Below, piece by piece: positions 1 to 49,792 of a DNA stretch of 64,000 bases (position 1 is the first letter of the stretch; every line of letters begins with the position of its first letter). Origin of the DNA: Terriglobia bacterium (GTDB taxonomy: Bacteria > Acidobacteriota > Terriglobia > 20CM-2-55-15). Under the pieces are notes generated by a model, which saw only the letters and a program-made list of their open reading frames with translations, did no database searches and was not told the origin of the DNA. Where the stretch lies: NCBI GenBank assembly GCA_965198225.1, contig CBDAOY010000007.1, positions 990,045 to 1,054,044 of the forward strand, written 5' to 3'. The translations under genes and the position numbers were made by a program.

Positions 1-1669
1 CCCAGTAGTGATCCTCGACGACGACCAACCGGCCCCCTGTTTCCGCGGCTGCACGGATCAGGCCCTCGGCATCGATGGGCTTGACCGAGTATGCGTCGAT
101 GACCCGGATGGAGCAGCCTCGCTCCTTCAGGATGTCGTGTGCCTTCAAGCCTTCGTGGAGCGTGATCCCGGCGCCGACCACCGTGATGTTGTCATCATCG
201 GACTGTCTAAGAGTCTTCGAGCCGCCGATGTCAAAGACCTCGTCGGAGTCATAGATGACCGGTGCTTTCGGGCGGGTCGTGCGCAGATAGGAAATACCAT
301 CTTGATCCGCCAGTCTTGAGACCAGGCGTTCAGTCGAAACCGCGTCGCTCGGATACAGCACCACCGAGTCGGGAATGGCGCGAAACATCGCTATGTCTTC
401 CAAGCCCATCTGGGACGGTCCGTCCTGTCCTATCGAGACGCCGCAGTGGGAACCGACGAAGCGGATGTTCGCCCGGGAAATACGGGCCATCCGGATCTGG
501 TCGAAACTTCTGGTCAGAAAAGCTGCGAACGTCGAAACAAACGGGATCTTGCCGCAGGCGGACATGCCTGCAGCCACACCGACCATGTTCTGTTCCGCGA
601 TGAACATCTCGAAGAACTGATCGGCGTGATCGGCGAGGAGTTTCTGGGAGAATGTCGAGTTCTTCGTGTCGCCGTCGAGCGCAACGACACGCGGATCCTT
701 GTCGGCCAGCTTGACCAGGGCGTCACCGTAGGCCTCCCGCGTCGCGGCCTGATCTCCGCGGTTGCGGGTGACGTCGATGCGGTGTTCGACGTGGGCGGCT
801 TCGATCGGAATGCTCGGTCGCGGAGACGGTTTGTAGCCGTCTGAGCCGAGCGGGGTCGACAACTCCCGGAGTGCCGAGCTGAGTTCGGTCTTCGGTACGG
901 GCTTGCCGTGCCAGCCGTCCTTGTCTTCAAGAAGCGATACGCCTTTGCCCTTGAATGTGCGGGCGACGATCGCGCGGGGCCGATCGCCTCCCTCGGCCCG
1001 ACACTTCTCGAACGCGCCGGTGATCGCCTCGTAGTCGTGCCCGTCGATCGCGAGGGCGTACCATCCGAAAGCCCGGAATCGCTCTGCGTAACGGTCGACG
1101 TCGAAGCCGTACATCGTTCGCTGGCTCTGGCCCATGCCGTTGACATCGACGATGGCATAGAGGTTCTTCGTCTCGTAGAAACTCGCCAGCGCGGCCGCTT
1201 CCCACACCGAGCCCTCGGCGCACTCACCGTCTCCCAGCAGCACGTAAGTATCGTAGGGCGCGTCGTCCATGCGCGCGGCCAGCGCGAGGCCCAGCCCGGC
1301 CGACAGCCCCTGGCCCAGAGATCCCGTTGCCACGTCGACCCACGGGATTCGCGGGGTCGGGTGGCCCTCGAGGTCGCTGTCAAACTTGCGAAGGCTCAGC
1401 GTCGCGTTCTCATCCACAATTCCGGCTTCGGCGTACGCCGCGTACAAGAGCGGTGCCGCGTGGCCTTTCGACAACACGAACCGGTCGTTCGAAGGGTTGT
1501 TCGGCTCCTGCGGGTCGTAATGCATCTGCCGGAAGAATATGACCGAGGCCAGGTCTGCGGCCGACAGGCATGATGAAGGGTGTCCAGAGCCGGCCTCGGT
1601 CGTGGCCTTGATGGAGAGGACGCGCATTCGGCGCGCCTTTTCTTTGAGGACTTCGATGGGCGTGTCCAT
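1..1669 (-). CDS. tkt: transketolase (single polypeptide; the start codon is in the window and the 3' end runs off the window start)
   Basis: Manual minus-strand translation from the ATG at 1669 gives MDTPIEVLKEKARRMRVLSIKATTEAGSGHPSSCLSAADL...LLGDGECAEGSVWEAAALA...FIAEQNMVGVAAGMS...HCGVSIGQDGPSQMGLEDIAMFRAIP. These are transketolase TPP-binding and pyrimidine-binding motifs. The gene is absent from the ORF track because it has no stop inside the window. The listed ORFs here (514..1383 minus, 908..1573 plus) are off-frame or antisense shadows. Confidence 0.85.
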   Translation of the reverse strand, partial: MDTPIEVLKEKARRMRVLSIKATTEAGSGHPSSCLSAADLASVIFFRQMHYDPQEPNNPSNDRFVLSKGHAAPLLYAAYAEAGIVDENATLSLRKFDSDLEGHPTPRIPWVDVATGSLGQGLSAGLGLALAARMDDAPYDTYVLLGDGECAEGSVWEAAALASFYETKNLYAIVDVNGMGQSQRTMYGFDVDRYAERFRAFGWYALAIDGHDYEAITGAFEKCRAEGGDRPRAIVARTFKGKGVSLLEDKDGWHGKPVPKTELSSALRELSTPLGSDGYKPSPRPSIPIEAAHVEHRIDVTRNRGDQAATREAYGDALVKLADKDPRVVALDGDTKNSTFSQKLLADHADQFFEMFIAEQNMVGVAAGMSACGKIPFVSTFAAFLTRSFDQIRMARISRANIRFVGSHCGVSIGQDGPSQMGLEDIAMFRAIPDSVVLYPSDAVSTERLVSRLADQDGISYLRTTRPKAPVIYDSDEVFDIGGSKTLRQSDDDNITVVGAGITLHEGLKAHDILKERGCSIRVIDAYSVKPIDAEGLIRAAAETGGRLVVVEDHYW

Positions 1670-1925
1670 GATTTCGAACGCTGTTCCTTTTCGAACGGTT
1701 GACGACATGCTAAAGCAGCCCGAGGCCAGGCATCTCCGAGGGAACGCCGGACCGAAATTTGCCTGAGATGAAGTTGTGAATTATACGACACCTCTCGGGC
1801 CAGAAGCGGGGCCTAGAGGCAACGAAAACGGTTGGATGTTCGGCTTAGCCGTATCGCTGGTCCAATGTGATCCAGGTCTCTCCTGGCGGGCAGCCGATTC
1901 TTCTATAAAGACTGTAAAAAATGTA

Positions 1926-1954
1926 TTGACAACAAGATCACGAAAACAGATAAT
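1926..1954 (+). promoter_or_regulatory. sigma70-type promoter, TTGACA-17 nt-GATAAT, in an AT-rich island
   Basis: TTGACA lies at 1926-1931 and GATAAT at 1949-1954 with an exact 17-nt spacer. It points away from the divergent transketolase gene and toward the terminator at 1993-2021. Confidence 0.5.
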
Positions 1955-1960
1955 TCGCGT

Positions 1961-2021
1961 AATCTCATTAATTTGAGCGTTCCCCACACTCCGGGCCCTG
2001 CGCGATGCAGGGCCTTTTTTT
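1961..2021 (+). ncRNA. candidate small RNA (~60 nt) defined by the promoter and intrinsic terminator; no ORF
   Basis: The predicted TSS is ~1961, about 7 nt after the -10. The predicted 3' end is the U-tract at 2015-2021. There is no coding potential in between. Confidence 0.3.
1993..2021 (+). terminator. rho-independent terminator (GGCCCTGC-gcgat-GCAGGGCC followed by TTTTTTT)
   Basis: An 8-bp GC stem with a 5-nt loop is followed by a T7 run on the plus strand only. Confidence 0.6.
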
Positions 2022-2511
2022 CTGCAGAGACACCGATGATTCTTCACTCTCGGGGCAAACGGGGCGTGCAACCGGGCGTTACCATCTTGCGTGTGCTGTC
2101 GTCGGCGAACTGAGAAACTCGAACCAGCAGCGCCACCGAAACCTGCACGCAGTGGCCGCACTCCGGTTGGGGCTCAAGGTTCGACCAAACCTCGAGGTGA
2201 GCCGTCGCTCGAATCGACAGACGCCAGCACCGATCCGGACGCCGAGGATCGCGGCGTAAAGCACTCCAAGTGATGCCGGCCGTCCTGAGGGACCTACTCG
2301 GTACAGCGACCTTGTCACGAAAGACTTCCCGTTCTTTCTCCATTTCATGTTCCGTTGAGTCGAGTGATGAGCTGGTCTTTTCCCGTCGGTCATAGCATCC
2401 ACGGTATTGCAGCAGTCCAATCCGGTGGGCACGACGAGACCTCCCACCAACAGAATCCCGTCCGATTTTCGACCTGCTTCTCTAGAGCGGAAGTGTCCGC
2501 CAACCGTAATC

Positions 2512-3000
2512 CTAGGCGGTCTTGCCTACATCAAGCCATCTGCGAATCGCTCTGGAGGCGTCGCGCCGGATGATCTCTTCCAAGTACGGCACGAGGCAAG
2601 CATACGGACGCCTCAGCCAGGGCGTGCCCTTCGGATCATCCCCCGCGAAGCCAAAGTCGATCCAATCCTCGCATCCCGCGAAATGTCCGCCCCGGCAGAG
2701 CCGACATATTCGCCAGCGTAGCTTGCTTTTCGCGCCCTGTCCGAGGACTAGGAAAGTCTTTCGTTCGGCCTGCAGCTCCCGAATCTGCCTGAGTTCGTAG
2801 CGAAGAGATTCGGACATCATGTCAATCGTGACAATGACGTGGGACGACAGGCGAACGCACTCGCGGACCAGCTCGCGCCATTTGTCGTCCGGTGCGATTA
2901 GCTTCGGAATTGGCATGGGTCTGGCGGCCAAGTTCAAGGTTGACGAGCCCAAGCCGATAACGGAACACCCTTGACCTCCGGCCACGTAGTTGGGGCGCAC
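2512..3000 (-). CDS. hypothetical protein (162 aa, Cys-containing)
   Basis: The ORF is in the track. The protein is non-repetitive and has plausible codon usage. No family is recognised. Confidence 0.45.
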   Translation of the reverse strand: MRPNYVAGGQGCSVIGLGSSTLNLAARPMPIPKLIAPDDKWRELVRECVRLSSHVIVTIDMMSESLRYELRQIRELQAERKTFLVLGQGAKSKLRWRICRLCRGGHFAGCEDWIDFGFAGDDPKGTPWLRRPYACLVPYLEEIIRRDASRAIRRWLDVGKTA

Positions 3001-3161
3001 CCAACGTCTTGGGCTGGTTCCGTTGCTTGGCAGCGGTGCGAAGATCGAGAACCGGCTGGAGAATCGGGGTAGACCCGTCCAAACTGTGGGGTGAAATGCG
3101 GAGCACAGGACCGACCGTCAATGAATCAACTCTGTTATCAGCAGCTTACAGCTACGGGAAG

Positions 3162-3248
3162 CGGAGAGGGTGGGATTCGAACCCACGGTGGAGTCACCCC
3201 CACACCGGTTTTCGAGACCGGCCTGTTCAACCGCTCCAGCACCTCTCC
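3162..3248 (-). tRNA. tRNA-Ser (anticodon CGA)
   Basis: The reverse complement is GGAGAGGTGCTGGAGCGGTTGAACAGGCCGGTCTCGAAAACCGG...GGGTTCGAATCCCACCCTCTCCG. It has a 7-bp acceptor stem, the anticodon loop CTCGAAA, a long variable arm and the T-loop GGTTCGAATCC. Confidence 0.85.
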
Positions 3249-3402: not shown

Positions 3403-6400
3403 TCAGTCTTCGCCGCCTTTCCCGGACTTCTTGGACTTATCTGACTTTTCGGATTTGTCCGATTTGCCGGACTTGCCCGACTCCTCAGACTTGTTCGATT
3501 TTCCGGACTTGTCGGACTTACCCGATTTGTCGTCATCGTCGCCTTCGATGTCAGCCTGGATGCGGATCTCTCCCGAGTCGTTGCCGATCGTTAGGTTGAC
3601 CTCGACTGGATTCGAGATACTGTCCAGATTCACGGCCTCCGCCTCGACTCGAAAGTCGAAGGCGTCCGGACCCAGCTCGCGAATCCTCAGCTCCAGCTCG
3701 ATCCCGGCGACCTCGCCTTCAAACTCAAAGATGTCCGCACCACCCTTACGGCGGAACTCCAGCGAACCTGCCGGCAGCGTCAGTTCGAAGACGCCGATGT
3801 TCAGGACAACATCTTCCTGTGACGGGTCGATACCGTCGGAAGCGACGCCCAGCGTGAAAGCTTCCCGGAGGTCGAACTCGCCGTCCGCGCCCGTTTCAAT
3901 CTCAGCGACGGCGGCGAAATCGGCAAATATCTCTGGCTGCGTGTCGCGGATGGTGATCTCCACAGTGTCGTCGACGCAGTCGGAGCGAGAGTTGCAGGCC
4001 CGGAAGGCCGCCGAAACAATGGTATCCGCTCCCACCGACGGTGCGAGGAACGTTGCGCTGGCTCCCGACGTCTCGAAGACGCCGTCGCTGTCTGTGTCCC
4101 ATTCAAGAGTCAGGAACGACACATCGCCCCCTTCCGCGTGGGTAACAGTCCCGTTGAGCGCAATCGACTCTCCTTCGTCGACCTCGTACGGCCCCCCGGC
4201 ATCCGCCGTGATACCGGCGAGATCCTCGTCGCCGAACGTGTCCCCGGGAGCTACTGCTGCTATTTCGTTGCCGTCGGAGTCAACCACCCGAAGTGCAACG
4301 TTGCCCAGATTCTCGACCAGGAACTGTCCCAGCGGGGACTCGGTGACCTTGCCGATCCCGCCCGTCGGGATCGACACGAAGGTGTCAGCGCCGAAGCCGA
4401 CCTCGACTGGCCCACGGAGGACCTCTAAGGTCAGGGACCCGCACAGGAACTTCACGGCATCGTTCTGGTCCAGGTCCACTCCCTGGCCGCACGCCACGAT
4501 GTGCGCCTTTTCGGTCCCGCCCCTGGCGTTGGCGAACAACCCGTTTCCGAACGCGTCCCAAACCGTCACGTGCTGGTCCGCCCGGATCATTATGAAACCG
4601 GAACTAATCCCGTCGCTGAAATCGTCAGAAAAGGTCTGATCGGTGTCCACCTGGTCGATGATCCCGTCGCCGTCCCGGTCTTGCGGACCGATGGCCGTGA
4701 CGCGGCCCCCCACCCCAACGATGGCGCCGACCACCTTGTTCGAAACCGTCCCGTTTTCGTCCACCACCTCGATGACCTGAACGACGGACTCACTGGCCAC
4801 GTAGACCTTCGTCCCGTCCGGACTCACTGTGACGTCACTACCGAACGCCCCCGGCACTGCCGGGACGACGACGTCCTTGACGTTCGTGTCGATAACCGCG
4901 ACTCCAAACGGTCCCATCGCAACGTAGACGAGATGGCCATGGCCGTCTACGGGCTGCGGTGTCACGGCCAGATCGGACGGTACACCTCCAACGCTGATGT
5001 CCTTGACCTTCATGCCGTACTCACTGGTGTTCCTGTCAGCGCCGATGACGGAGACGGTCTTCGCGTTGGCAAAGGTATTCCCCACATAGGCCCACTGACC
5101 GTCGGGCGTCACGAGTACAGGACTGGGCTGGGTACCGACAACGATGTCGAGGGCCTCGGAGGTCTCGGTGTCGATCCGCGTGACCTTTTTCTGTTCGCGC
5201 CGGGTGGCGTAGACCTGAGTGCCGTCCGGGTGCACCGCCACACCGTCGAAGTTTTCCGCTGCTTTACCGGAATGTAAGACGGTCAGACCATGGGTCTCAG
5301 TGTCCATCACGTAGATGTCCGACCTGTTGCCACCCTGGTTGTCATTTTTGTCCTCGTGGACCACGACGAAGAGCTTCGTTCCGTCGGGGCTCACGACCAG
5401 TGCTTCGGGACCTGGTCCAACGACGTCCTCAACGGGGATAGGGACCTTGTGCACCTGTTTGGTGGCCGTGTCGAAGACCACAACGTTTTGGAGGTTGTTA
5501 AGGGAGTCCCGCTCGAGCCCATAGACTTCTGCCCCGTCTGGACGGACTGCGACGGCACCTGGCGCGCGATCAGTCAGGCCCGGCACAAGAGCTCCCGGCA
5601 CCGTTTCGGTGAGCAGGCAGTCATTGGCGGTGTCGATGATGCGGCCGTCGCCGGTATAGGCAAGCGGCCCGCCACCGCCGGTGCACGAAAGGGTGATCTT
5701 CGCGACGAACGCGTCGTTTCCGATTCCAGCGTTTGGCTGCAGCGTATTCCCCTCCTGCGGGAAGTTGGCGGATCCCGTTGTGCCGGCGACATAGACCTCA
5801 CCGAACGGGTTGACCGCGATACCGGAGCCCCTGTCGGCTCCGCTTCCTCCAAGGTAGGTGGAATACACGAGGTCTGTCCCGGAAAGGTTGAACTTGCTGA
5901 TGAAGGCATCGCAGAGCGTGCCATCGTGCAAGTGGGCTACGGGGTCCTCGGGTAGAGGGTCGACGAGTGGGAAACCGGTCATCGGGGCAGTCGTCGAGCA
6001 GCCCTGCCCGGTCACGTAAACGCCCGAGGGGTCTGCCGCGACAGCGTATCCGTAGTCGTCTCCCACGCCGCCCAGGAACGTGGAATACGTGAGATCCGCA
6101 CAGTTGTTGTACTGGACCTGTCCGATCGGGCAGCTCACGAAGGAGGAGTTGCCCGCGGACAGTGCCGCCACAAACACATCGTAAGTCCCACCGCCATGTG
6201 TCTCCTGGTAGGTGCCCGGAAAGCCGAAATTGCTGGAGGAGACAGGGAAGTCCATCGAAATGGTCTCTCCTGTGACCACGATTCCCCACGGACTGAAGGA
6301 TATGCCTCGCGCCAGGTCCCAGCTGGAGCCGCCCAGGTAGGTGGCATACTCCAGACGAGCTATCCCCTGGTTGTTTGTGCCCAGTTCGGCCAGAAAGGCG

Positions 6401-8004
6401 TCGCATCCGCCGCCGTACTGGGTTGAGAAAGGAGTCGCCGAAGGAGGGGTGGGAAAGTCGTCTGAGCAGGTCTGTCCCGTCACGAAGGGGCCGGTCGACT
6501 CGGAGCCGACGATGATTCCCAGACCATCCTCGCTGGACTGGCCCCCAAGGTAGACACCGTAGTCGAAGTCGTGACAGTCGCTGTATTGGATTCCGTTGAT
6601 GTTGCAGGAACTCTCGTTGAAGGGAGTGCTGATATCGAGCTTGACCACGAAGGCGTCCCGGGCAAGCAGCGGATTGTTCACGTCGATGGAGAGCGTGGTC
6701 AGTGCGGATTGGGCGTTGTCGGCAGGGAAGTCCGCCGAGTGGGTTGTGCCGGTAACAAAGACGGAGTTCACGGTGTTCGGTAAGAGCGAGGGTGTCACAG
6801 CCACGCCGAGGGCGAGGTCGTCGCGGCTGCCGCCCAGATAGGTGGAGTACTGGAGTTGCCCGCTGAAGGGCGCGAGCGCAAGCACAAAGCCGTCCAGATC
6901 GGTGCCTCCTAACTTGTTGGGGTCCAATCCCCGGTCAAAGGCGTCGGGAGTCGTGGGGAAGTCCGATGACCTGGTGTGACCTACTACGTACACCGTGCCC
7001 GAGGGCGCCGGGACGATTCCCCTCGCGGACTCGTCGCCTGTCCCTCCGAAGTAGACGGAATAGGCCAGGGCGCCGGAGCTGTCTATCTTGACCACGAAGC
7101 CGTCGTCTCCTGCCGCCGGCGGCACCTGGGTTGCCGGACCGGGCAGTGTGGCGCCCGAGGTGGTCGACCCTGCTACATAAACGTTCCCCTCGCCGTCGAT
7201 GGCGATGCCACGGGCTGAATCCTCGCCCATCCCGCCAAGGTAGCTGGAGTAGCCTAGCTCCAGCACCGGATCGATGACCAGAGTTTTGCTGTCATCGTAT
7301 GCGGCCAGTTGAAAACCGACGACCTGGGATTCTGGATTCAAGAGGTATCCGCCGGGGACCGTTTGCCGCCGACCGTCGATTTCCTGGTAGATGACGGGTT
7401 TTCGAAGTCGAACCTCACCGGTGGAGGTGTCGAGGACGAGGTCCCCGTTCGTGTCGATTTCGACTCTATCCGGACCCTCCAAGGAAACCTTGATGGAGTC
7501 GGGATCAGCCCCGGGCGCAACTATGAAGTCGTGCTCCCAGCGCCGTTGGTTGCCATAGTGAACGAGGTCGATCCCTGGATAGACATTCTGGTATCGGACC
7601 CTTGCGTAGGTTGGGAGGTTGGTGCGCCACTTCTCGGGGTCGCTTCCGATGAAGTAACTGCTCTTGCCTGGCAGCTCCTGGAGGCCGATGATAGCCGATC
7701 CGGAGTCGGCGCCGACGAGCCGCATCCGCACCGCACTTGCCGGGGTTTTGCCGGCGTCGCGCTCACGGAGCAGAAGAACCGCTTCTTCGGAAGTCAGGAA
7801 GAGCGTATAGCCGCTGCCTCGGGAAATGAACCGGACCTCTTCGTCCGCCTGGCCCTGGTTGGGCTCGAAGGCCATCGGTAATTGCACGAAGGTCGCCGGC
7901 AGGCTCTGGTCGACCTTTCCTTCACCCTGGCTGTTGGCCCCCCCGGGGGAAACCACGATTCCGAACAAAAGGCAGACCAAGAAGGCTTTCATCGCCGATC
8001 GCAT
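3403..8004 (-). CDS. secreted giant beta-propeller repeat protein (1533 aa) with SBBP repeats, YVTN repeats, an Ig/PKD-like region and a C-terminal (KSGKSD)n low-complexity tail
   Basis: It has a signal peptide (MKAFLVCLLFGIVVSPGGANSQ). SBBP-type repeats are repeated (YSTYLGGSGxDxGxGIAV...GxVYVxGxTxSxxFP). YVTN-type repeats are present (VHPDGTQVYATRREQKKVTRIDTETSE...). The tail is DDDDKSGKSDKSGKSNKSEESGKSGKSDKSEKSDKSKKSGKGGED. Confidence 0.85.
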   Translation of the reverse strand: MRSAMKAFLVCLLFGIVVSPGGANSQGEGKVDQSLPATFVQLPMAFEPNQGQADEEVRFISRGSGYTLFLTSEEAVLLLRERDAGKTPASAVRMRLVGADSGSAIIGLQELPGKSSYFIGSDPEKWRTNLPTYARVRYQNVYPGIDLVHYGNQRRWEHDFIVAPGADPDSIKVSLEGPDRVEIDTNGDLVLDTSTGEVRLRKPVIYQEIDGRRQTVPGGYLLNPESQVVGFQLAAYDDSKTLVIDPVLELGYSSYLGGMGEDSARGIAIDGEGNVYVAGSTTSGATLPGPATQVPPAAGDDGFVVKIDSSGALAYSVYFGGTGDESARGIVPAPSGTVYVVGHTRSSDFPTTPDAFDRGLDPNKLGGTDLDGFVLALAPFSGQLQYSTYLGGSRDDLALGVAVTPSLLPNTVNSVFVTGTTHSADFPADNAQSALTTLSIDVNNPLLARDAFVVKLDISTPFNESSCNINGIQYSDCHDFDYGVYLGGQSSEDGLGIIVGSESTGPFVTGQTCSDDFPTPPSATPFSTQYGGGCDAFLAELGTNNQGIARLEYATYLGGSSWDLARGISFSPWGIVVTGETISMDFPVSSSNFGFPGTYQETHGGGTYDVFVAALSAGNSSFVSCPIGQVQYNNCADLTYSTFLGGVGDDYGYAVAADPSGVYVTGQGCSTTAPMTGFPLVDPLPEDPVAHLHDGTLCDAFISKFNLSGTDLVYSTYLGGSGADRGSGIAVNPFGEVYVAGTTGSANFPQEGNTLQPNAGIGNDAFVAKITLSCTGGGGPLAYTGDGRIIDTANDCLLTETVPGALVPGLTDRAPGAVAVRPDGAEVYGLERDSLNNLQNVVVFDTATKQVHKVPIPVEDVVGPGPEALVVSPDGTKLFVVVHEDKNDNQGGNRSDIYVMDTETHGLTVLHSGKAAENFDGVAVHPDGTQVYATRREQKKVTRIDTETSEALDIVVGTQPSPVLVTPDGQWAYVGNTFANAKTVSVIGADRNTSEYGMKVKDISVGGVPSDLAVTPQPVDGHGHLVYVAMGPFGVAVIDTNVKDVVVPAVPGAFGSDVTVSPDGTKVYVASESVVQVIEVVDENGTVSNKVVGAIVGVGGRVTAIGPQDRDGDGIIDQVDTDQTFSDDFSDGISSGFIMIRADQHVTVWDAFGNGLFANARGGTEKAHIVACGQGVDLDQNDAVKFLCGSLTLEVLRGPVEVGFGADTFVSIPTGGIGKVTESPLGQFLVENLGNVALRVVDSDGNEIAAVAPGDTFGDEDLAGITADAGGPYEVDEGESIALNGTVTHAEGGDVSFLTLEWDTDSDGVFETSGASATFLAPSVGADTIVSAAFRACNSRSDCVDDTVEITIRDTQPEIFADFAAVAEIETGADGEFDLREAFTLGVASDGIDPSQEDVVLNIGVFELTLPAGSLEFRRKGGADIFEFEGEVAGIELELRIRELGPDAFDFRVEAEAVNLDSISNPVEVNLTIGNDSGEIRIQADIEGDDDDKSGKSDKSGKSNKSEESGKSGKSDKSEKSDKSKKSGKGGED

Positions 8005-36927: not shown

Positions 36928-37194
36928 TTGACGCACCAGAAACGGTCAGCCACGGTGAGAGATATGGTCAAGAATTTCATCCCGAACTGCGACCTGTGCG
37001 GTCGAGAGATTCCCGAAGGGAAGTACCCGCAACGAAGGGTGCCGACGAACGGGATCGAACTGTTGATCGTGCTCCTGGAGAATTCCGATCCGGAACTGGA
37101 ACTGCGGGAAAACGAAGACGGGACCGTCGACCTGGACACGTGTCTGGACTGCTACACGCGGATGGCTTTTTCGCATAGCCACGCGGTGAATTAA
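36928..37194 (+). CDS. small zinc-ribbon-like protein (CxxC...CxxC)
   Basis: It has CDLCGREIP and CLDCYTRM. The alternative start is MVKNF. Confidence 0.4.
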   Translation: MTHQKRSATVRDMVKNFIPNCDLCGREIPEGKYPQRRVPTNGIELLIVLLENSDPELELRENEDGTVDLDTCLDCYTRMAFSHSHAVN

Positions 37195-37489
37195 GTGTGG
37201 GTGCGCTCTATATGAGCGCACATCGTTTCGGCTCAAAGAATGTGCGGTCATAGACCGCAGCTACACCTATCGCAAATTGCGATATTTGAAAGAATCCACA
37301 TTGCAGGTTGCTCATTGGAGATTGTTTCATTTTAGATTTCCGACCAATAAGAAATCGAGCAATTTGCAATCTCCAAATTTCCAATGCGGAATCGTCCAAT
37401 GACCAATCTGCAATAGCTGTCAGACGAGGTCCCAGCCACCTCCCTCGATCGAGTAGAATGTGCGGTCATAGAGCGCACCTACACTTCCA
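37195..37489. repeat. AT-rich repeat element with internal palindromes (GTGCGCTCTATATGAGCGCAC) and direct repeats (AGAATGTGCGGTCATAGAsCGCA)
   Basis: The core TTGCAGGTTGCTCATTGGAGATTGTTTCA has a ~75%-identical copy at 23160-23225. Confidence 0.55.
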
Positions 37490-42623: not shown

Positions 42624-45077
42624 TCAGCAGCACTCGCCGGGTTCGCAACACTCAACGCTGGACAGCGCCGCGTCAGCATCCTTGGCCATCACCAGGAAAG
42701 ATCCCGCGTAAGGCTCTCGCGACAGTTTCGCAGCGGTATCGGTGCACACCTGGACGGGTTCGTTTCGGGGAAAGAGGTGGCCTTCCTCGTCGACGACCGC
42801 CTTCAGCGGGCCCAGATAGACGGCGCGCTGGCCTTCGAAGTTGCACACTCCGTTCTTCCCGAACTTGAAGCCCTGGATGATCAGCGAGTAGAAACGGTAG
42901 CCTTCGATCTCTTTCCAGAAGGTTTTCTCGACGAGCGACAGGCCGTAGAAACCCACCTGCTCGAGCATGGCGAAGTATTCATCTTCGGTCAGTGCTCCCG
43001 AGACGCACTCTCCCCACAGCCGGGGGTTGGCTTTCATGTGGTGGGGAATCTTCGATTCGGACACCGTGTCGGAGATGATCGCGCGGCCGTGATTCTTCAG
43101 AACCCGCCACATCTGCGAAAGTACGCGGCGTTTATCGGGCGAAAGGTTGATCACGCAGTTGGACGTCACGATATCGGCCTTCTGATCCTCCAGCGGAAGC
43201 TGTTCGAGGTATCCGCGCCGGAATTCGACGACGTCGTACCCGAGGGATTCGGCGACGATGCCCCGATTCCGTTCGGCCCGCTCGATCATTTCCGTCGTCA
43301 TGTCGATGCCGATCACACGACCGCTGGACCCGACGCGCTGTGCCGCGATAAAGCAGTCGATACCGCCTCCCGAACCGAGATCGACGTATGTTTCGCCCGG
43401 CTTGATGTCGGCGAACCGAATCGGGCTGCCGCAGCCGTAGGACACCTCGACGACTTCCTTCGGCAGTGCCCGAAGCTCGGCGGGGTCGTAGGCGGTCGGA
43501 CAGCACAGCGCTTCCTGAGGCTCGACGGCCGCCTGGGCGTAGAACTGGCGGACTTTCTCACGCGATCGTTCCAAGTCGACGGAGAGGACGCACGTGGAAC
43601 GGGATGTGGCGATCTCGAACCCCTCCGCTTCAATGGTTTCCATCTCAGAAAGCGATTCACCCATCGCGGCCACGACGGTCGGGGAATCGTATCCGGATGG
43701 GCCCTCATGGCTCTTGTTCTCAGAGGCGATCTGCTCGATCGCTCGGAGCAGCAGCCATTCGTGAACCTTCGAAAACGGGTCTTTTCCAAGGACGGTGCCG
43801 GAGTAGAAGAATGAATGTTCGACGTCACCGCCGCCGCACACGTAGCGCAGGTAGCATTCCTGACAGTCTTCTTTCGCGATGACGCTGGCTCGGCGCAGCG
43901 CGCGCGCGCGCGCGGATGTTTTCCAGATTTCCGCCAGCGGCTGTTCCTCGACGTTGCCCATAAGCAGTTCGGGGACACCGGCCAGCGCCGCGGAAGGATA
44001 GACGGTGCCGTCCGCGTAGACGCAGCAGCTGCTCGTGGCCGCGACCGACAGGTCCATCTTGACCCCGCGTCGGCCCTGAGCCCTTTCCCGGGCGACCTCG
44101 TAGTTGTCGAGCTCGATTCCCTTCGAAGATGCGTTTTCCAGGTATCGTTCCAGCATCTCGATGATGTCGGCGGTGAACGGACTCTGCATCTGGTCGTCTT
44201 CCAGAGCCCTGCCCTGTTTGTGGTCCCACAGCAGGTGATGACGCCGGACGCCGAGTTTGTCCAGGAACTCCGGGAATCGAGGAAGCGTGTCGAGGTTCGA
44301 GCGAGTCACGACAGTGGACACGGTCGGTTCAAACGCGGCGTCCAGCAGGGCGCCGATGCCTTCGACGGTTCGCTCGAACCCGGATCCGCGGATCGCGTGG
44401 TGGGTCTCGCGGTCGGGTCCGTCGATGCTGACCTGTAGGGCCACGTTGCCGTTCGCGGCGGCTTTGAGATTGGCCAGGGTATCGCCCCGGAAGAACATGG
44501 CGTTGGTCAGGATGACGAGTTCGCTGTCGGTGCAGATGGCCCGAACGATGTCGATCAGGTCGCGCCGTAAGAACGGCTCTCCACCGGTGATGTAAAATTG
44601 CCGAACACCCATCTGTTTCGCGTCGTCGACGATCTTCAGCCATCGATCAGTTGGAAGTCCCTCGATCCCTTTCGGGGAAGAATCCACGAGGCAGTGGGCG
44701 CAAGTCAGGTTGCAGCGGTTCGTCAGGTGCAGCCACATCTCTTGCGGCTCGTGGCGCTCGATCAACGCCCCGCGACCCGGATAGGTCGGGTGCTGGAACG
44801 GCTCGCTTCTCAGGAAGTCGGTCCGCAGTGCATGGTTGAGCAGCGTGCTGACGTCGAGCCAGGCTTCGGCCCAGTCCTTGCCCGCGTGGGACCGGTAGCG
44901 GCCCACAAGGTCCGAGACCCTCCGCTGTCCGTCGATCCAGCCGAGTATTTCGACGCCCGCTCGGTTCGTCACGATCCAGTTTGGCGCCTCGGGGTCGAAC
45001 ATCAGTCCGAATTCTCCGATCAGCCGCTCTTCGTAACGTGGGGGCGCGTGAAGTACCTGTTCAGGCAAGATAGTCAT
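42624..45077 (-). CDS. fusion protein: PqqD/RRE-like N-terminus + radical SAM (CxxxCxxC) + Cys-rich/SPASM-like domain (ArsS-like) + complete ArsM-type arsenite S-adenosylmethyltransferase
   Basis: The rSAM motif is TNRCNLTCAHC. The Cys-rich region is SSCCVYADGTVYPS...CQECYLRYVCGGGD. The ArsM half has LCCPTAY, YGCGSPI, VDLGSGGGIDCF, SNCVINLSPDK and LWGECVSGAL, with all four conserved ArsM cysteines present. The start has an AGGAGA RBS. Confidence 0.8.
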   Translation of the reverse strand: MTILPEQVLHAPPRYEERLIGEFGLMFDPEAPNWIVTNRAGVEILGWIDGQRRVSDLVGRYRSHAGKDWAEAWLDVSTLLNHALRTDFLRSEPFQHPTYPGRGALIERHEPQEMWLHLTNRCNLTCAHCLVDSSPKGIEGLPTDRWLKIVDDAKQMGVRQFYITGGEPFLRRDLIDIVRAICTDSELVILTNAMFFRGDTLANLKAAANGNVALQVSIDGPDRETHHAIRGSGFERTVEGIGALLDAAFEPTVSTVVTRSNLDTLPRFPEFLDKLGVRRHHLLWDHKQGRALEDDQMQSPFTADIIEMLERYLENASSKGIELDNYEVARERAQGRRGVKMDLSVAATSSCCVYADGTVYPSAALAGVPELLMGNVEEQPLAEIWKTSARARALRRASVIAKEDCQECYLRYVCGGGDVEHSFFYSGTVLGKDPFSKVHEWLLLRAIEQIASENKSHEGPSGYDSPTVVAAMGESLSEMETIEAEGFEIATSRSTCVLSVDLERSREKVRQFYAQAAVEPQEALCCPTAYDPAELRALPKEVVEVSYGCGSPIRFADIKPGETYVDLGSGGGIDCFIAAQRVGSSGRVIGIDMTTEMIERAERNRGIVAESLGYDVVEFRRGYLEQLPLEDQKADIVTSNCVINLSPDKRRVLSQMWRVLKNHGRAIISDTVSESKIPHHMKANPRLWGECVSGALTEDEYFAMLEQVGFYGLSLVEKTFWKEIEGYRFYSLIIQGFKFGKNGVCNFEGQRAVYLGPLKAVVDEEGHLFPRNEPVQVCTDTAAKLSREPYAGSFLVMAKDADAALSSVECCEPGECC

Positions 45078-45254: not shown

Positions 45255-45588
45255 TTATCCCGGGCGTCGACGCATCTCTTCCCGGGTGATGAATCCATCA
45301 TCGTCCGCGTCGAGGCGGTCGAAGGCCTCAGTCGGTCGGGTCCACTCGTCACGAGAAACCTTGCCGTCGCCGTCTTCATCCATCTGGAGCATCGCGGCTC
45401 CCCGGCCACGTCCGCCTCTGCCCGGGCGGGAGTTCTGCATCTCTTCGAGAGTGATGAAGCCGTCGCCATCGGCGTCCATGGTCTCGAACATCTGCGCGGG
45501 ACCCGGAAACTCCTGCTGCGACACGCGTCCATCGCCATCGCTGTCGAGCCCCTGGAAACGGGCTTGAGGGTCTGCGCCTCTTCCGCCT
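45255..45588 (-). repeat. downstream copy of an exact ~310-bp tandem duplication. It encodes a now out-of-phase extra EF-hand segment (...DADDDGFITREEMRRRPG*).
   Basis: Region 45301-45590 is 100% identical to 45611-45900. At the junction the upstream copy carries 2-bp and 7-bp deletions, which create a TAG stop at 45589-45591. Confidence 0.7.
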
Positions 45589-46746
45589 CTATCCCGGGCG
45601 TCGCCATCTCTTCCCGAATCCATCATCGTCCGCGTCGAGGCGGTCGAAGGCCTCAGTCGGTCGGGTCCACTCGTCACGAGAAACCTTGCCGTCGCCGTCT
45701 TCATCCATCTGGAGCATCGCGGCTCCCCGGCCACGTCCGCCTCTGCCCGGGCGGGAGTTCTGCATCTCTTCGAGAGTGATGAAGCCGTCGCCATCGGCGT
45801 CCATGGTCTCGAACATCTGCGCGGGACCCGGAAACTCCTGCTGCGACACGCGTCCATCGCCATCGCTGTCGAGCCCCTGGAAACGGGCTTGAGGGTCTGC
45901 GCCTCTTCCGCCTCTGCCGCGGCCGCCCCCGAATTGCCGCTGGATTTCGTCACGAGCGAGGAGACCATCATCGTTTCGATCGAGCCGGTCGAACGTCTCG
46001 CCGTCGCCCGTCCACTCTTCCCGTGAGATTGTACCGTCCTCGTTCGTGTCCATGACGCCCATACCGCCCGCAGTCCCGGGCCTCTGCCCCGGCCGAGGGC
46101 GCATACCACGCATGCCGCGGCCGCGACGCTGTCCCTGTTCCTGTCCGTAGGCGGTGATCTCCCCTCTGAGAGCGACCTCGAGCGCTGCCCTGGCTTCGGG
46201 GACATCGAACCCGGCCGGCCCGGGGCGTCCCTTGAAGGCGATGGTGCCGTCGGAGCCCACGACATAGATCCGGTCGGGAAACGCGGCGTACGCATTCGCC
46301 GTCCGGTCGTCGATCTTGTCCAGAATGGTCGGCATCGAGATGTCCAAGGCGGTCGTACAGATGTTGGCTGCTTCCTGGCGCTGCTCGTCGGTTTTGGCTT
46401 GTTCGATCAGGATGCCGTCGATAACATTCGCCGCTCCGAGGTTGCCGTCGGTGGGATGCGCTTCTCGAATGTAGACGAAGAAGAAATTGGCGCGGTCCTT
46501 GTAAGCCTGGTACCAGTTTTCGATGTCCACGACATCGCGGCGGAACGGGCCTCAGGTATAGCTGGCGAAGATCAGCGCGGTCGGTCTGCCCGTCATCTCA
46601 GAAAGCGTAATCTTTTGCTTTCCGTCTTTTGTACTGAGCGTGAAATCAGGCGCCGTATCTCCAGGCGTGGGGCCGCCGCCTCGCCGCTGGGCCGTGGCAG
46701 GGCTCACCAGGACGAGGACCAATAACGCAGACGCGAATGTTCTCAT
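45589..46746 (-). CDS. selenoprotein: iodothyronine-deiodinase-like thioredoxin-fold domain (Sec encoded by UGA at 46552-46554) fused to a C-terminal EF-hand repeat array; secreted
   Basis: It has a signal peptide (MRTFASALLVLVLVSPATAQ) with a GGAGGA RBS. APDFTL...RPTALIFASYT-[TGA]-GPFRRD...FFFVYIREAHPTDG matches the deiodinase motifs FGSxT-U-PPF and FLxVYIxEAHPSDGW. The hairpin GAUGUC-GUGG-GACAUC lies 15 nt after the UGA. There are at least six DxDxDG EF-hand loops. Confidence 0.7.
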
Positions 46747-47558: not shown

Positions 47559-47864
47559 ATGCCTCGAAACTACATGACATATCCGTCCGGTCTGGTCCTG
47601 CAGGCAATCGCTTCGGGGCATCGGTATGGTTTCGATGTGATGGATGTGACGGGATTGCCGAGTGGTACGGTTTACCCGGCACTTCGGAAGCTGGAACGAG
47701 AGGGCTATGTCCGTTCCAGGTGGGAAGGCGAAGATGTGGCCCGCCAGGCAGGGCGTCCACCGCGGCGTTACTACGAGGTTAGCGGCCCTGGCTCGGCGGC
47801 CTTGACCCAGCTGCTGAAACGGTTTCCAGGACTGGCCCGGGCCCTTGCCGCGGAGGTCTTGTGA
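47559..47864 (+). CDS. PadR-family transcriptional regulator
   Basis: It has the winged-helix motif GYDV...GTVYPALRKLEREGYV. Confidence 0.85.
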   Translation: MPRNYMTYPSGLVLQAIASGHRYGFDVMDVTGLPSGTVYPALRKLEREGYVRSRWEGEDVARQAGRPPRRYYEVSGPGSAALTQLLKRFPGLARALAAEVL

Positions 47865-48452
47865 GGTGGGCAGGCGGCGAGCGGTCTCTCCGCGTCTGCC
47901 TGTTGTGGATTCGCGCTCTGTCGTTCCTCGTCCCGCCCCCGGGCCGGGACGAATGGATGCGGGAGTGGCGTGGCGAGCTTCTGCATCACTGGAGTGAGTT
48001 CGAGACAGGAGTTCAAAAGTCCCGTGCTGCAAGATTCGATTTGTTCCTACATTCGATGGGCGCCTTGCCTGATGCACTGTGTCTGCTGCGTCAGGAGTGG
48101 AGACTGGACATGCTGATGCAGGATCTGACCTATGCGGTACGGACGCTCGGCGCTCGACCGGGCTTCACCTTCGTAGTGATTTTCATTCTGGCGCTGGGTA
48201 TCGGGGCCAACACCGTCGTGTTCAGCGTCGTCGATGCCGTCCTGTTTCGACCCCTACCGTTTCCCGAGCCGGAGAGGCTGGTTGCGATCTGGGACGAAAA
48301 CACCCAAAAGTCGATGCTTCGTCAGGGTCCGGCGCCCGGCAATCTGCTGGACTGGCGTGACCAGTCACGGGTGTTCGATGGTATCGGAGCCTGGTACGCG
48401 GGCGAGCCCAGGACTGTGCGCGACGAGTCCAGTGCGGAGAAAGTGTCCGCCA
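47861..48452 (+). pseudogene. ADOP-type (MacB-like/FtsX) permease, N-terminal ~195 aa only; interrupted by a mobile element
   Basis: DLTYAVRTLGARPGFTFVVIFILALGIGANTVVFSVVDAVLFRPLPFPEPERLVAIWDE is the classic ADOP N-terminus. At ~48450 the reading frame runs into AT-rich foreign DNA and stops (..SATIGFYYV*). Confidence 0.7.
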
Positions 48453-48613
48453 CTATAGGATTTTATTATGTCTAATAATATCCATAAGTCTTATTTATAT
48501 CAACAGTATATCGTCCTAGACAATCCAGCGCCGTCTGGTATAATCCAAGCCTGTTGGGGGATATATTGGGGGAGTGCTGGAGTGCCTCTGCCCCATCGGT
48601 CGAGGGCTCTGCA

Positions 48614-49792
48614 ATGGCCATTCACAAACTCTCCCAACGCAAGGTAGACACCGCCGGTCCCGGCAAATACGAAGACGGCGGCGGGCTCCGCTTGGTGGTG
48701 TCCAATTCAGGCGCCAGGAGATGGGTCCTGCGTTACACCGTCCACGGCAAACGCCGGGAAATGGGTCTGGGCCGTTATCCCGATGTCGGGTTGGCCGATG
48801 CCCGCACGCAAGCGCTACGGCACCGGAGGCAGTTGGCGACGGGCGTAGATCCCATCGCAGCCCGCCGGGCGGCCCCGGAGACGCTACCCACCTTCACCAT
48901 CTGCGCCGCCCGGTATATCCGGGCCCATCGACGGAGTTGGCACAATGCCAAGCACGCGCGGCAATGGGTCCGGAGCCTGAAGACCTATGCCCGGCCCGTC
49001 ATCGGGGCCAAACGGGTCGACGCCATTGAGACTGAAGACATTGTAAAGATACTCTCTTCGATCTGGAACACCAAGACCGAAACGGCCAAGCGCGTGCAGG
49101 GGCGCATCGAAAATGTCCTGGACTTCGCCGCCGCGCACCAATACTGCGGTCCCCTGAACCCGGCCCGCTGGCGGGGCCATCTGGACAAGTTGCTCCCGAA
49201 GCCCTCCCGGGTGAAGCAAGTCACCCACCACCCGGCCATGCCGTATCCCGAGGTGGCGGACTTCCTGCAGGAGCTGTCCGGACACCGGAGTGTATCGGCG
49301 CAGGCGCTGCGGTTTTTGATCCTGACCGCCACGCGCACCAGTGAAGTCTTAGAGGCGCAGTGGCCGGAAATCGATCGGACCGCCGGTATATGGATCCTTC
49401 CCGCCTCCCGGATGAAAGCCCGACGGGAACATCGAGTTCCCTTATCGGATGCGACCCTGGCGGTTCTGGAAGACCTACCCCGCATGGCAGGCCACCCGTA
49501 TGTCTTCGCCGGATCTCGCCACGGACGCCCTCTGTCGAACATGGCCCTACTGAAATTGATGCGAGACATGGGATATTGCGTTGAGGGTTCCCGGGCTCAC
49601 TACGTGCCGCATGGATTTCGCTCCAGTTTTCGGGATTGGTCCGGCGAGGTGTCGAGCTTCCCGCGAGAAGTTGCGGAAATGGCCTTGGCCCACGTGGTGG
49701 AGAACAAGGTGGAAGCGGCCTACCGGCGGGGGGATCTGTTCGCCAAACGGCGCAGCATGATGCAGGCCTGGGCCGACTACCTCAAGAAGTAG
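48614..49792 (+). CDS. tyrosine-type site-specific integrase, phage P4-like (DUF4102 arm-binding N-terminus)
   Basis: It has KLSQRKVDTAGPGKYEDGGGLRLVV and the catalytic R...HGFRSSF...Y motifs. Confidence 0.85.
   Translation: MAIHKLSQRKVDTAGPGKYEDGGGLRLVVSNSGARRWVLRYTVHGKRREMGLGRYPDVGLADARTQALRHRRQLATGVDPIAARRAAPETLPTFTICAARYIRAHRRSWHNAKHARQWVRSLKTYARPVIGAKRVDAIETEDIVKILSSIWNTKTETAKRVQGRIENVLDFAAAHQYCGPLNPARWRGHLDKLLPKPSRVKQVTHHPAMPYPEVADFLQELSGHRSVSAQALRFLILTATRTSEVLEAQWPEIDRTAGIWILPASRMKARREHRVPLSDATLAVLEDLPRMAGHPYVFAGSRHGRPLSNMALLKLMRDMGYCVEGSRAHYVPHGFRSSFRDWSGEVSSFPREVAEMALAHVVENKVEAAYRRGDLFAKRRSMMQAWADYLKK

Follow-up and report, generated by a model that had tools for sequence, protein, structure and literature searches.

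Here we describe a locus in an acidobacterial genome whose architecture, judged from its sequence, is that of a textbook bacterial small RNA (sRNA) gene of the ordinary regulatory-RNA kind. It lies on the plus strand of a 64-kb stretch of DNA (64,000 nucleotides, hereafter the window), divergent from a transketolase gene (tkt), and we somewhat favour the view that it is a stand-alone sRNA gene whose product, of ~60 nt, acts in trans by base pairing with mRNAs through a C-rich seed. The first-pass annotation had likewise proposed a stand-alone sRNA at this position, and comparative evidence from 16 related loci supports that candidate. With no match in Rfam 15 and nothing relevant in the searchable literature, the sRNA represents a previously undescribed family, which, based on the loci compared, appears to be single-copy and confined to a Bryobacterales/Solibacteraceae-like clade of uncultured soil Acidobacteria.

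The predicted promoter consists of a -35 hexamer TTGACA (1926-1931), a spacer of 17 bp (1932-1948) and a -10 hexamer GATAAT (1949-1954), all on the plus strand. It matches the consensus at 11 of 12 positions and is probably of the housekeeping sigma-70 type. The -35 hexamer is the same in 15 of the 16 homologues, the remaining one (L088) having TTGACT, and the -10 hexamer retains the pattern nAnAAT in the relatives, where the variants GAGAAT, CAGAAT, CACAAT, CAAAAT and GAAACT are found. The length of the spacer is 17 in all homologues, but its letters drift: relatives whose transketolases are ~76% identical match the spacer of the window at 3-7 of the 17 positions. Directly abutting the -35 hexamer is an AT-rich, UP-element-like block (1903-1925, plus strand) composed of ~9-bp repeats (CTATAAAGA / CTGTAAAAA / ATGTA), which is shared as CTRTAAAAACTRTAAMAAATGTA in all homologues; its motif occurs in two overlapping copies at 1903-1925 and practically nowhere else in the window. 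This block may be an UP element or an activator site, and the sRNA is probably strongly expressed. The exact TTGACA-17-GATAAT promoter and the unusually AT-rich island around it, both reported in the first-pass annotation, are borne out, the GC content being 0.39-0.44 over 1851-2000 versus ~0.6 in the flanks.

That a promoter of this quality faces a strong terminator at short distance is unlikely to be coincidental. Within the 60 kb scanned there is one other promoter-like site at 11/12, located at 48517 in front of an integrase gene, and there is no second terminator with equal stem length and T run. In 300 simulated first-order Markov sequences with the composition of the window, sites matching at least 11 of 12 positions occurred on average 0.07 times per sequence, versus two observed, and none of the 300 contained a promoter with a strong terminator no more than 130 nt further on, versus one such pair observed. 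The absence of such pairs from the simulations, together with their rarity in the 60 kb, argues that the pairing of promoter and terminator is real and not due to chance.

The predicted transcript extends from 1961 to 2021 on the plus strand. Its 5' end is placed at A1961/A1962 on account of the position of the -10 hexamer, 7-8 nt upstream, and of the onset of conservation, and its 3' end probably falls within the U tract. From 5' to 3', the RNA would start with a small hairpin of 4 bp (1964-1977), in which CUCA pairs with UGAG around a UUAAUU loop in both the minimum free energy (MFE) and the centroid predictions. It is followed by an unpaired C-rich stretch of 15 nt, CGUUCCCCACACUCC (1978-1992), which is single-stranded in all predicted folds and constitutes the proposed seed, and by an intrinsic terminator (1993-2021) with a stem formed by 1993-2001 and 2007-2015, a loop at 2002-2006 and a U tract at 2015-2021. 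The terminator hairpin (1993-2015) comprises ten pairs according to the terminator scanner, seven of which are G-C, and nine pairs according to RNAfold, and the run of T residues that follows is T7 (2015-2021), in agreement with the earlier description of a strong GC hairpin plus T7 ~60 nt downstream of the promoter. Folding of 1961-2022 gave -21.8 kcal/mol (z = -3.4 versus shuffles). The close homologues share one predicted fold, with z-scores of -3.4 to -4.3. Extending the folded region to 1900-2120 gave z = +0.54, which is no better than shuffles, and the centroid then keeps only the two hairpins. It should be noted that the pairs of the small 5' hairpin never vary among the close homologues and hence provide no covariation support for it.

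To place the locus in a comparative context, we assembled loci from three sources: the GTDB species representatives provided 80 tkt loci, exact-protein look-ups of 12 tkt homologues added 17 more, and a metagenome-wide DNA pattern scan retrieved two contigs, one of the L002 type and one of the L012 type that lacks a terminator. Locus L001 is on contig CBDAPB010000038.1 of a Terriglobia metagenome-assembled genome, L004 on CBDHGK010000041.1 and L012 on OZ253536.1. Judged by tkt, the window belongs to the class Terriglobia of the Acidobacteriota, and the nearest genome is a Terriglobia metagenome-assembled genome with 97% identity, followed by relatives with 68-78% identity that are labelled Solibacteraceae, Bryobacterales-like or Candidatus Sulfopaludibacter. 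The sRNA module is present at 16 loci besides the window, and the number of distinct sequences, that of the window included, is 13; the carriers according to an nhmmer profile are L001, L002 (identical to L081), L003, L007, L010, L012, L082, L083, L084, L086, L087, L088, L089, L090 (identical to L091) and L092. In every homologous locus, the module is on the strand opposite to tkt and ~80-260 bp upstream of it, and the test for conservation of the island next to tkt, which the first-pass annotation had put forward as a check, is strongly positive. The module is absent upstream of tkt in the equally close relatives L004, L005, L006, L085, L093/L094 and L118. It is also missing at tkt in a clade with ~70% tkt identity (L008, L009 and L114-L117), where a gene of the FAH family abuts tkt with a gap of 10 nt; a wider family that spans this clade was rejected for these reasons. 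Among the tkt loci collected, those of all other phyla lack the module as well. A covariance model built for the family (R1) scored 76-91 bits in all close homologues and found one copy in the window, without detecting a second copy either there or in the other loci. Nineteen matches of viral contigs to the 16-mer core all scored below 19 bits and are attributed to chance.

The pattern of conservation among these relatives is the main reason to consider the module an RNA gene. In relatives with ~76% amino-acid identity in transketolase, 31-45% of the four-fold degenerate sites of tkt are identical, and this value, together with the 3-7 of 17 positions retained in the promoter spacer, indicates that both classes of sites are effectively saturated. 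Those same relatives are identical to the window at 27-29 of the 29 positions of the near-invariant body AUCUCAUUAAUUUGAGCGUUCCCCACACU (1962-1990, plus strand). Conservation of the body begins at A1962, 7-8 nt past the -10 hexamer, which is where transcription is expected to start. The only recurrent change within the body is C1987 to U, a substitution that would still allow pairing with G. The terminator stem behaves differently: its letters vary but pairing holds, with 98.1% of cells paired across 12 distinct sequences versus 17-58% in slid controls, and three pairs are changed on both sides; none of 500 shuffles attained the covariation score of the real alignment. The U tract comprises T5-T8 in all homologues except L082, being T6 in L003, L010 and L087-L090 and T5 in L092. 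Both flanks of the module are randomised among the relatives. The footprint of selection, which covers the -35 and -10 hexamers, the body, the paired arms and the U tract, is that of an RNA gene.

Two of the homologues deserve comment. In L007 (z = -5.1), the most divergent homologue, the terminator is kept and the small 5' hairpin is out of register; a 13-nt insertion pairs with UUGAGC such that GUUCCCCACA is presented in a hairpin loop. The C-rich motif hence remains exposed in L007, where a loop takes the place of the linear stretch. Every predicted fold leaves the invariant sequence GAGCGUUCCCCAYACU unpaired (within the loop in the case of L007), and this combination of invariance and exposure, even in L007, suggests that it is the lasting core motif. 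As to L082 (metagenome contig Ga0310120_10030387, positions 2980-3070), its promoter and body are near-identical to the L012 type, the differences (two substitutions and a deletion of 2 nt) being confined to the promoter. It diverges inside the 5' arm of the terminator and has no hairpin or U tract thereafter. Either this copy has been rearranged or is decaying, or the assembly is chimeric. A divergent-promoter remnant without terminator, the alternative considered in the first-pass annotation, was not seen among the relatives, this short contig being the only one in which the terminator is lacking.

Searches for known RNA families did not identify the sRNA. Rfam 15 was searched with a 2-kb region up to E <= 10, and with the whole window at gathering score; at the latter threshold no family matched the sRNA, and the tRNA-Ser discussed below was the only hit. 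The best match in the 2-kb search was isrD (RF01388), with 21.1 bits versus a gathering score of 37 (E = 0.33); this family did not appear in the whole-window scan. The suhB/mmgR family (RF00519) followed with 19.7 bits versus a gathering score of 41 (E = 0.46). Both were rejected, their sub-threshold scores deriving mainly from the terminator. No other Rfam 15 family scored above ~15 bits over 1961-2021 at E <= 10, including 6S RNA, SRP RNA, tmRNA, RNase P, RsaE and the acidobacterial motifs. Literature searches for sRNAs of Acidobacteria or Solibacter, and for the distribution of Hfq in the phylum, returned nothing relevant.

Regarding its genomic context, the divergent neighbour is, as originally described, a transketolase gene on the minus strand; it is fused, starts with the ATG at 1669 and is cut off by the left edge of the window (1-1669). 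A CGTATAAT(CC) box at 1778-1783 on the minus strand is also found upstream of tkt in L002, L003, L004, L005, L008, L010 and L012; across these loci and the window it precedes the tkt start codon by ~55-110 nt, and it is probably the -10 element of tkt. This box implies that canonical -10 boxes of the sigma-70 type are in use in the clade and are retained there. It further implies a tkt promoter distinct from the sRNA module; only in L007 do the two overlap. On the other side, a tRNA-Ser(CGA) gene (3161-3248, minus strand), the only feature in the window detected by Rfam or ARAGORN, is convergent with the sRNA, and the 1.14 kb between them (2022-3160) hold no Pfam-recognisable ORF. The tRNA-Ser(CGA) gene is near the module in the window and in L001, L007, L012, L087, L088, L089 and L090, at distances that vary from 57 nt (L089 and L090), 96 nt (L087) and ~0.5 kb (L088) to ~0.8-1 kb (L001 and L012) and ~1.14 kb in the window. 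In the relatives, the gap between sRNA and tRNA-Ser often lies beside integrase or transposase genes, and the region looks like a tRNA-linked insertion hot spot. Across the relatives, the next downstream feature is a convergent FAH gene (L002 and L007), a convergent cytochrome c gene (L084), the convergent tRNA-Ser gene at 57-96 nt (L087, L089 and L090), or a transposase or integrase gene. The idea that the 3' end of the sRNA itself is an integration hot spot was rejected, as homology among the relatives runs on past the terminator; the mobile genes downstream are explained by the convergent tRNA-Ser(CGA) gene.

Some other features of the window are worth recording. At 48445-49792 there is an AT-rich junction in which promoter-like sites stand back to back, one matching at 11/12 with an extended TG and the other at 10/12. 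The junction adjoins a downstream gene for a 412-aa tyrosine integrase (Arm-DNA-bind_3, Phage_int_M and Phage_integrase domains); upstream are a PadR regulator gene (47559-47864) and a 204-aa ORF, without a Pfam hit, whose end falls within the junction. An integrated mobile element probably has its edge here. A perfect (100%) tandem duplication at 45291-45915, with a 325-bp unit in 1.9 copies, reflects either a very recent event or an assembly artefact. The product of the minus-strand gene at 3403-8004 (1533 aa) contains DUF7948 and SBBP beta-propeller repeats and has a low-complexity C-terminal tail rich in Lys, Ser, Asp and Gly (KSGKSDKSGKS...). The alternating (GC)8 run at 43898-43914 is a terminator-like artefact only.

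Under the reading that we favour, a sigma-70-type promoter would start transcription at about A1961/A1962 and the intrinsic terminator at 1993-2021 would end the RNA at ~60 nt, resulting in a molecule that consists of a very small 5' hairpin, 15 unpaired nucleotides rich in C, and a terminator hairpin with a U tail. The invariant C-rich stretch, of which GCGUUCCCCAYACU is most likely the base-pairing seed, would pair with G-rich sites, for instance ribosome-binding regions of the GGGGAAC type, in mRNAs encoded elsewhere, and the translation or stability of these mRNAs would be altered. The U tail and the AU-rich stretch are, by analogy, suggestive of Hfq dependence; no Hfq-like Sm2 motif is encoded within the 64-kb window. 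The adjacent tkt gene is not supported as a direct target, given that the duplex energies of the seed with the tkt initiation region do not favour the 15 carriers over 32 tkt loci of non-carriers, and the best score belongs to L085, which is without the sRNA. Similarly, a 10-nt match in tkt of L002 merely reflects conserved Leu-Lys codons. Complementarity to the seed within the 64-kb window and 3-10-kb flanks is at background level, with no enrichment: the best non-self duplexes in the window, of ~-29 kcal/mol, are within the tail expected for a GC-rich genome. One duplex site, at 37171-37240, appears to be an intergenic terminator region.

These observations have to be weighed against readings in which the RNA does not act on mRNAs. 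Seeds of base-pairing sRNAs typically have 7-15 nt. The invariant block of 29 nt exceeds this length and may be under some further or other constraint, exerted for example by a protein partner or by more than one partner. It is possible, albeit rather unlikely in our view, that the locus encodes a genuine small RNA whose partner is a protein or a stable RNA, with a role as a sponge, a decoy or a component of a ribonucleoprotein. The invariance of the whole body and not just of a short seed, a promoter that looks constitutive and very strong (UP-like element and consensus -35 hexamer), and the fact that no mRNA target emerged from the tkt initiation region, the window or the flanks are in line with such a role. 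However, the RNA has no motifs known from protein titration, such as the repeated GGA loops of CsrB-type RNAs, no Rfam family matches it, those of housekeeping RNAs included, and the unpaired C-rich stretch followed by a U-tailed terminator is the classic layout of a base-pairing sRNA. A more specific version, which we regard as improbable, holds that this is a clade-specific, constitutively very highly expressed RNA whose entire 5' 30 nt are read by one conserved macromolecular partner, either a protein or a stable RNA such as tRNA-Ser(CGA); a single partner would explain the 29 frozen nucleotides. In this respect, CCCCACAC (1982-1989 of the window) is an exact 8-nt complement of GUGUGGGG in the variable arm of tRNA-Ser(CGA) (~3200-3207), whose gene is a recurrent convergent neighbour; allowing a 2-nt bulge lengthens the match. 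If true, such pairing would mean that the sRNA controls the maturation or availability of one tRNA. Both pairing with tRNA-Ser and an origin from it were nevertheless set aside, since the 8-nt match is of low complexity and a U to A change in the tRNA of L007 is not accompanied by a compensating change in the sRNA, so that the complementarity is probably due to chance.

Other explanations do without a functional sRNA. The act of transcription might be what matters, with the module serving as an insulator or interference cassette, or as one half of a divergent tkt region, and the RNA itself being irrelevant. The cassette is always directly upstream of tkt and often convergent with tRNA-Ser, its hairpin has no U tract on the opposite strand, so that read-through from the tRNA side towards tkt is conceivable, and the likely tkt promoter of L007 overlaps with the AT-rich element. 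We nonetheless judge this to be quite improbable: an insulator needs no invariant body of 29 nt while its own spacer drifts, the distances vary (~80-260 bp to the tkt start and 57 nt to more than 1 kb to the tRNA), and the close relatives L004, L085, L093 and L118 are without the cassette at tkt. Even lower is the probability that we assign to an element functioning at the DNA level, that is, a protein operator or an att-like recombination site tied to the tRNA-Ser hot spot. The inverted repeat CTCA-N6-TGAG at about +4 to +17, the frequency of integrase and transposase genes in the downstream flank and short similarities to segments of tRNA-Ser could be taken as indications of such an element, but homology continues past the terminator and the mobile genes lie beyond or beside the tRNA, which therefore accounts for them; the similarity to the tRNA is short, of low complexity and not compensated in L007; and the order of promoter, body and terminator, the covariation in the terminator and the U tract are signatures of selection on an RNA. 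Hardly credible, finally, is a 5' leader or attenuator, or a gene for a micro-protein. There is no ATG-initiated ORF between promoter and terminator, consistent with the original description, and no ORF is conserved among the relatives. The window does contain a TTG-initiated frame of 46 codons (1973-2113) and, after the terminator, an ATG-initiated frame of 25 codons, but the former, which crosses the terminator, lacks conservation, a Shine-Dalgarno sequence is absent, and all three codon positions are equally invariant. Moreover, the sequence past the terminator is unalignable and the next gene is usually convergent. A riboswitch or attenuator was rejected because there is neither a conserved co-directional downstream gene nor an alternative (anti-terminator) fold, and 60 nt with a constitutive-looking terminator leave no room for one.

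Several groups of known sRNAs come close to the locus. It shares with RybB, MicA and OmrA/B of the enterobacterial Hfq class a stand-alone intergenic gene with its own promoter and no ORF, and a conserved unpaired region that is 5'-proximal and has a GC hairpin and a tract of 6-8 U residues behind it, with conservation concentrated in the seed. It differs from them in that there is no similarity at the level of sequence or covariance model, in belonging to the phylum Acidobacteria, in being shorter (~60 nt) and in having an unusually long invariant block (29 nt). C-rich seeds that pair with G-rich ribosome-binding sites are found in RsaE/RoxS of Firmicutes and in the AbcR- and mmgR-type RNAs of Alphaproteobacteria. 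Similarly to these, the sRNA has an exposed C-rich motif, UUCCCCAC, which could mask G-rich sequences resembling Shine-Dalgarno sites, and the presentation of the motif in a hairpin loop in L007 is as in RNAs of these types; unlike them, it has a single C-run instead of two or more UCCC/CUCCC motifs, and the corresponding Rfam models do not detect it. The Hfq-binding sRNA isrD of Salmonella has a similar length and the same arrangement of a small 5' hairpin and a terminator, but the aligned identities are essentially those of the terminator and the U tract, and the sRNA is not a member of that family. Two acidobacterial RNA motifs, Acido-1 and Acido-Lenti-1, were reportedly found by earlier comparative genomics; they have in common with the sRNA the phylum and a prediction that stems from comparative analysis only, whereas no Rfam family matches the sRNA, even at E <= 10. 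One study gives seven or more T residues for the terminators of Hfq-binding sRNA genes (PMC5558911). The T7 run of the window has this length, while L003, L010 and L087-L090 (T6) and L092 (T5) fall short of it.

In summary, the locus is a well-delimited predicted sRNA gene, with a promoter, a predicted +1 position, a proposed seed, a terminator and comparative support. It does not represent a new kind of system. As a by-product, our analysis shows selection in this clade on a canonical consensus promoter of the sigma-70 type with an UP-like element. Although Acidobacteria rank among the most abundant bacteria in soil, their RNA regulators are, to our knowledge, almost entirely uncharacterised. 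In a review from 2022, only four annotated sRNA families are counted for the phylum as a whole (PMC9029176). The predicted sRNA gene may offer an entry point for the prediction of targets and for work on post-transcriptional control in the Bryobacterales/Solibacteraceae, which are abundant but little-studied soil bacteria.
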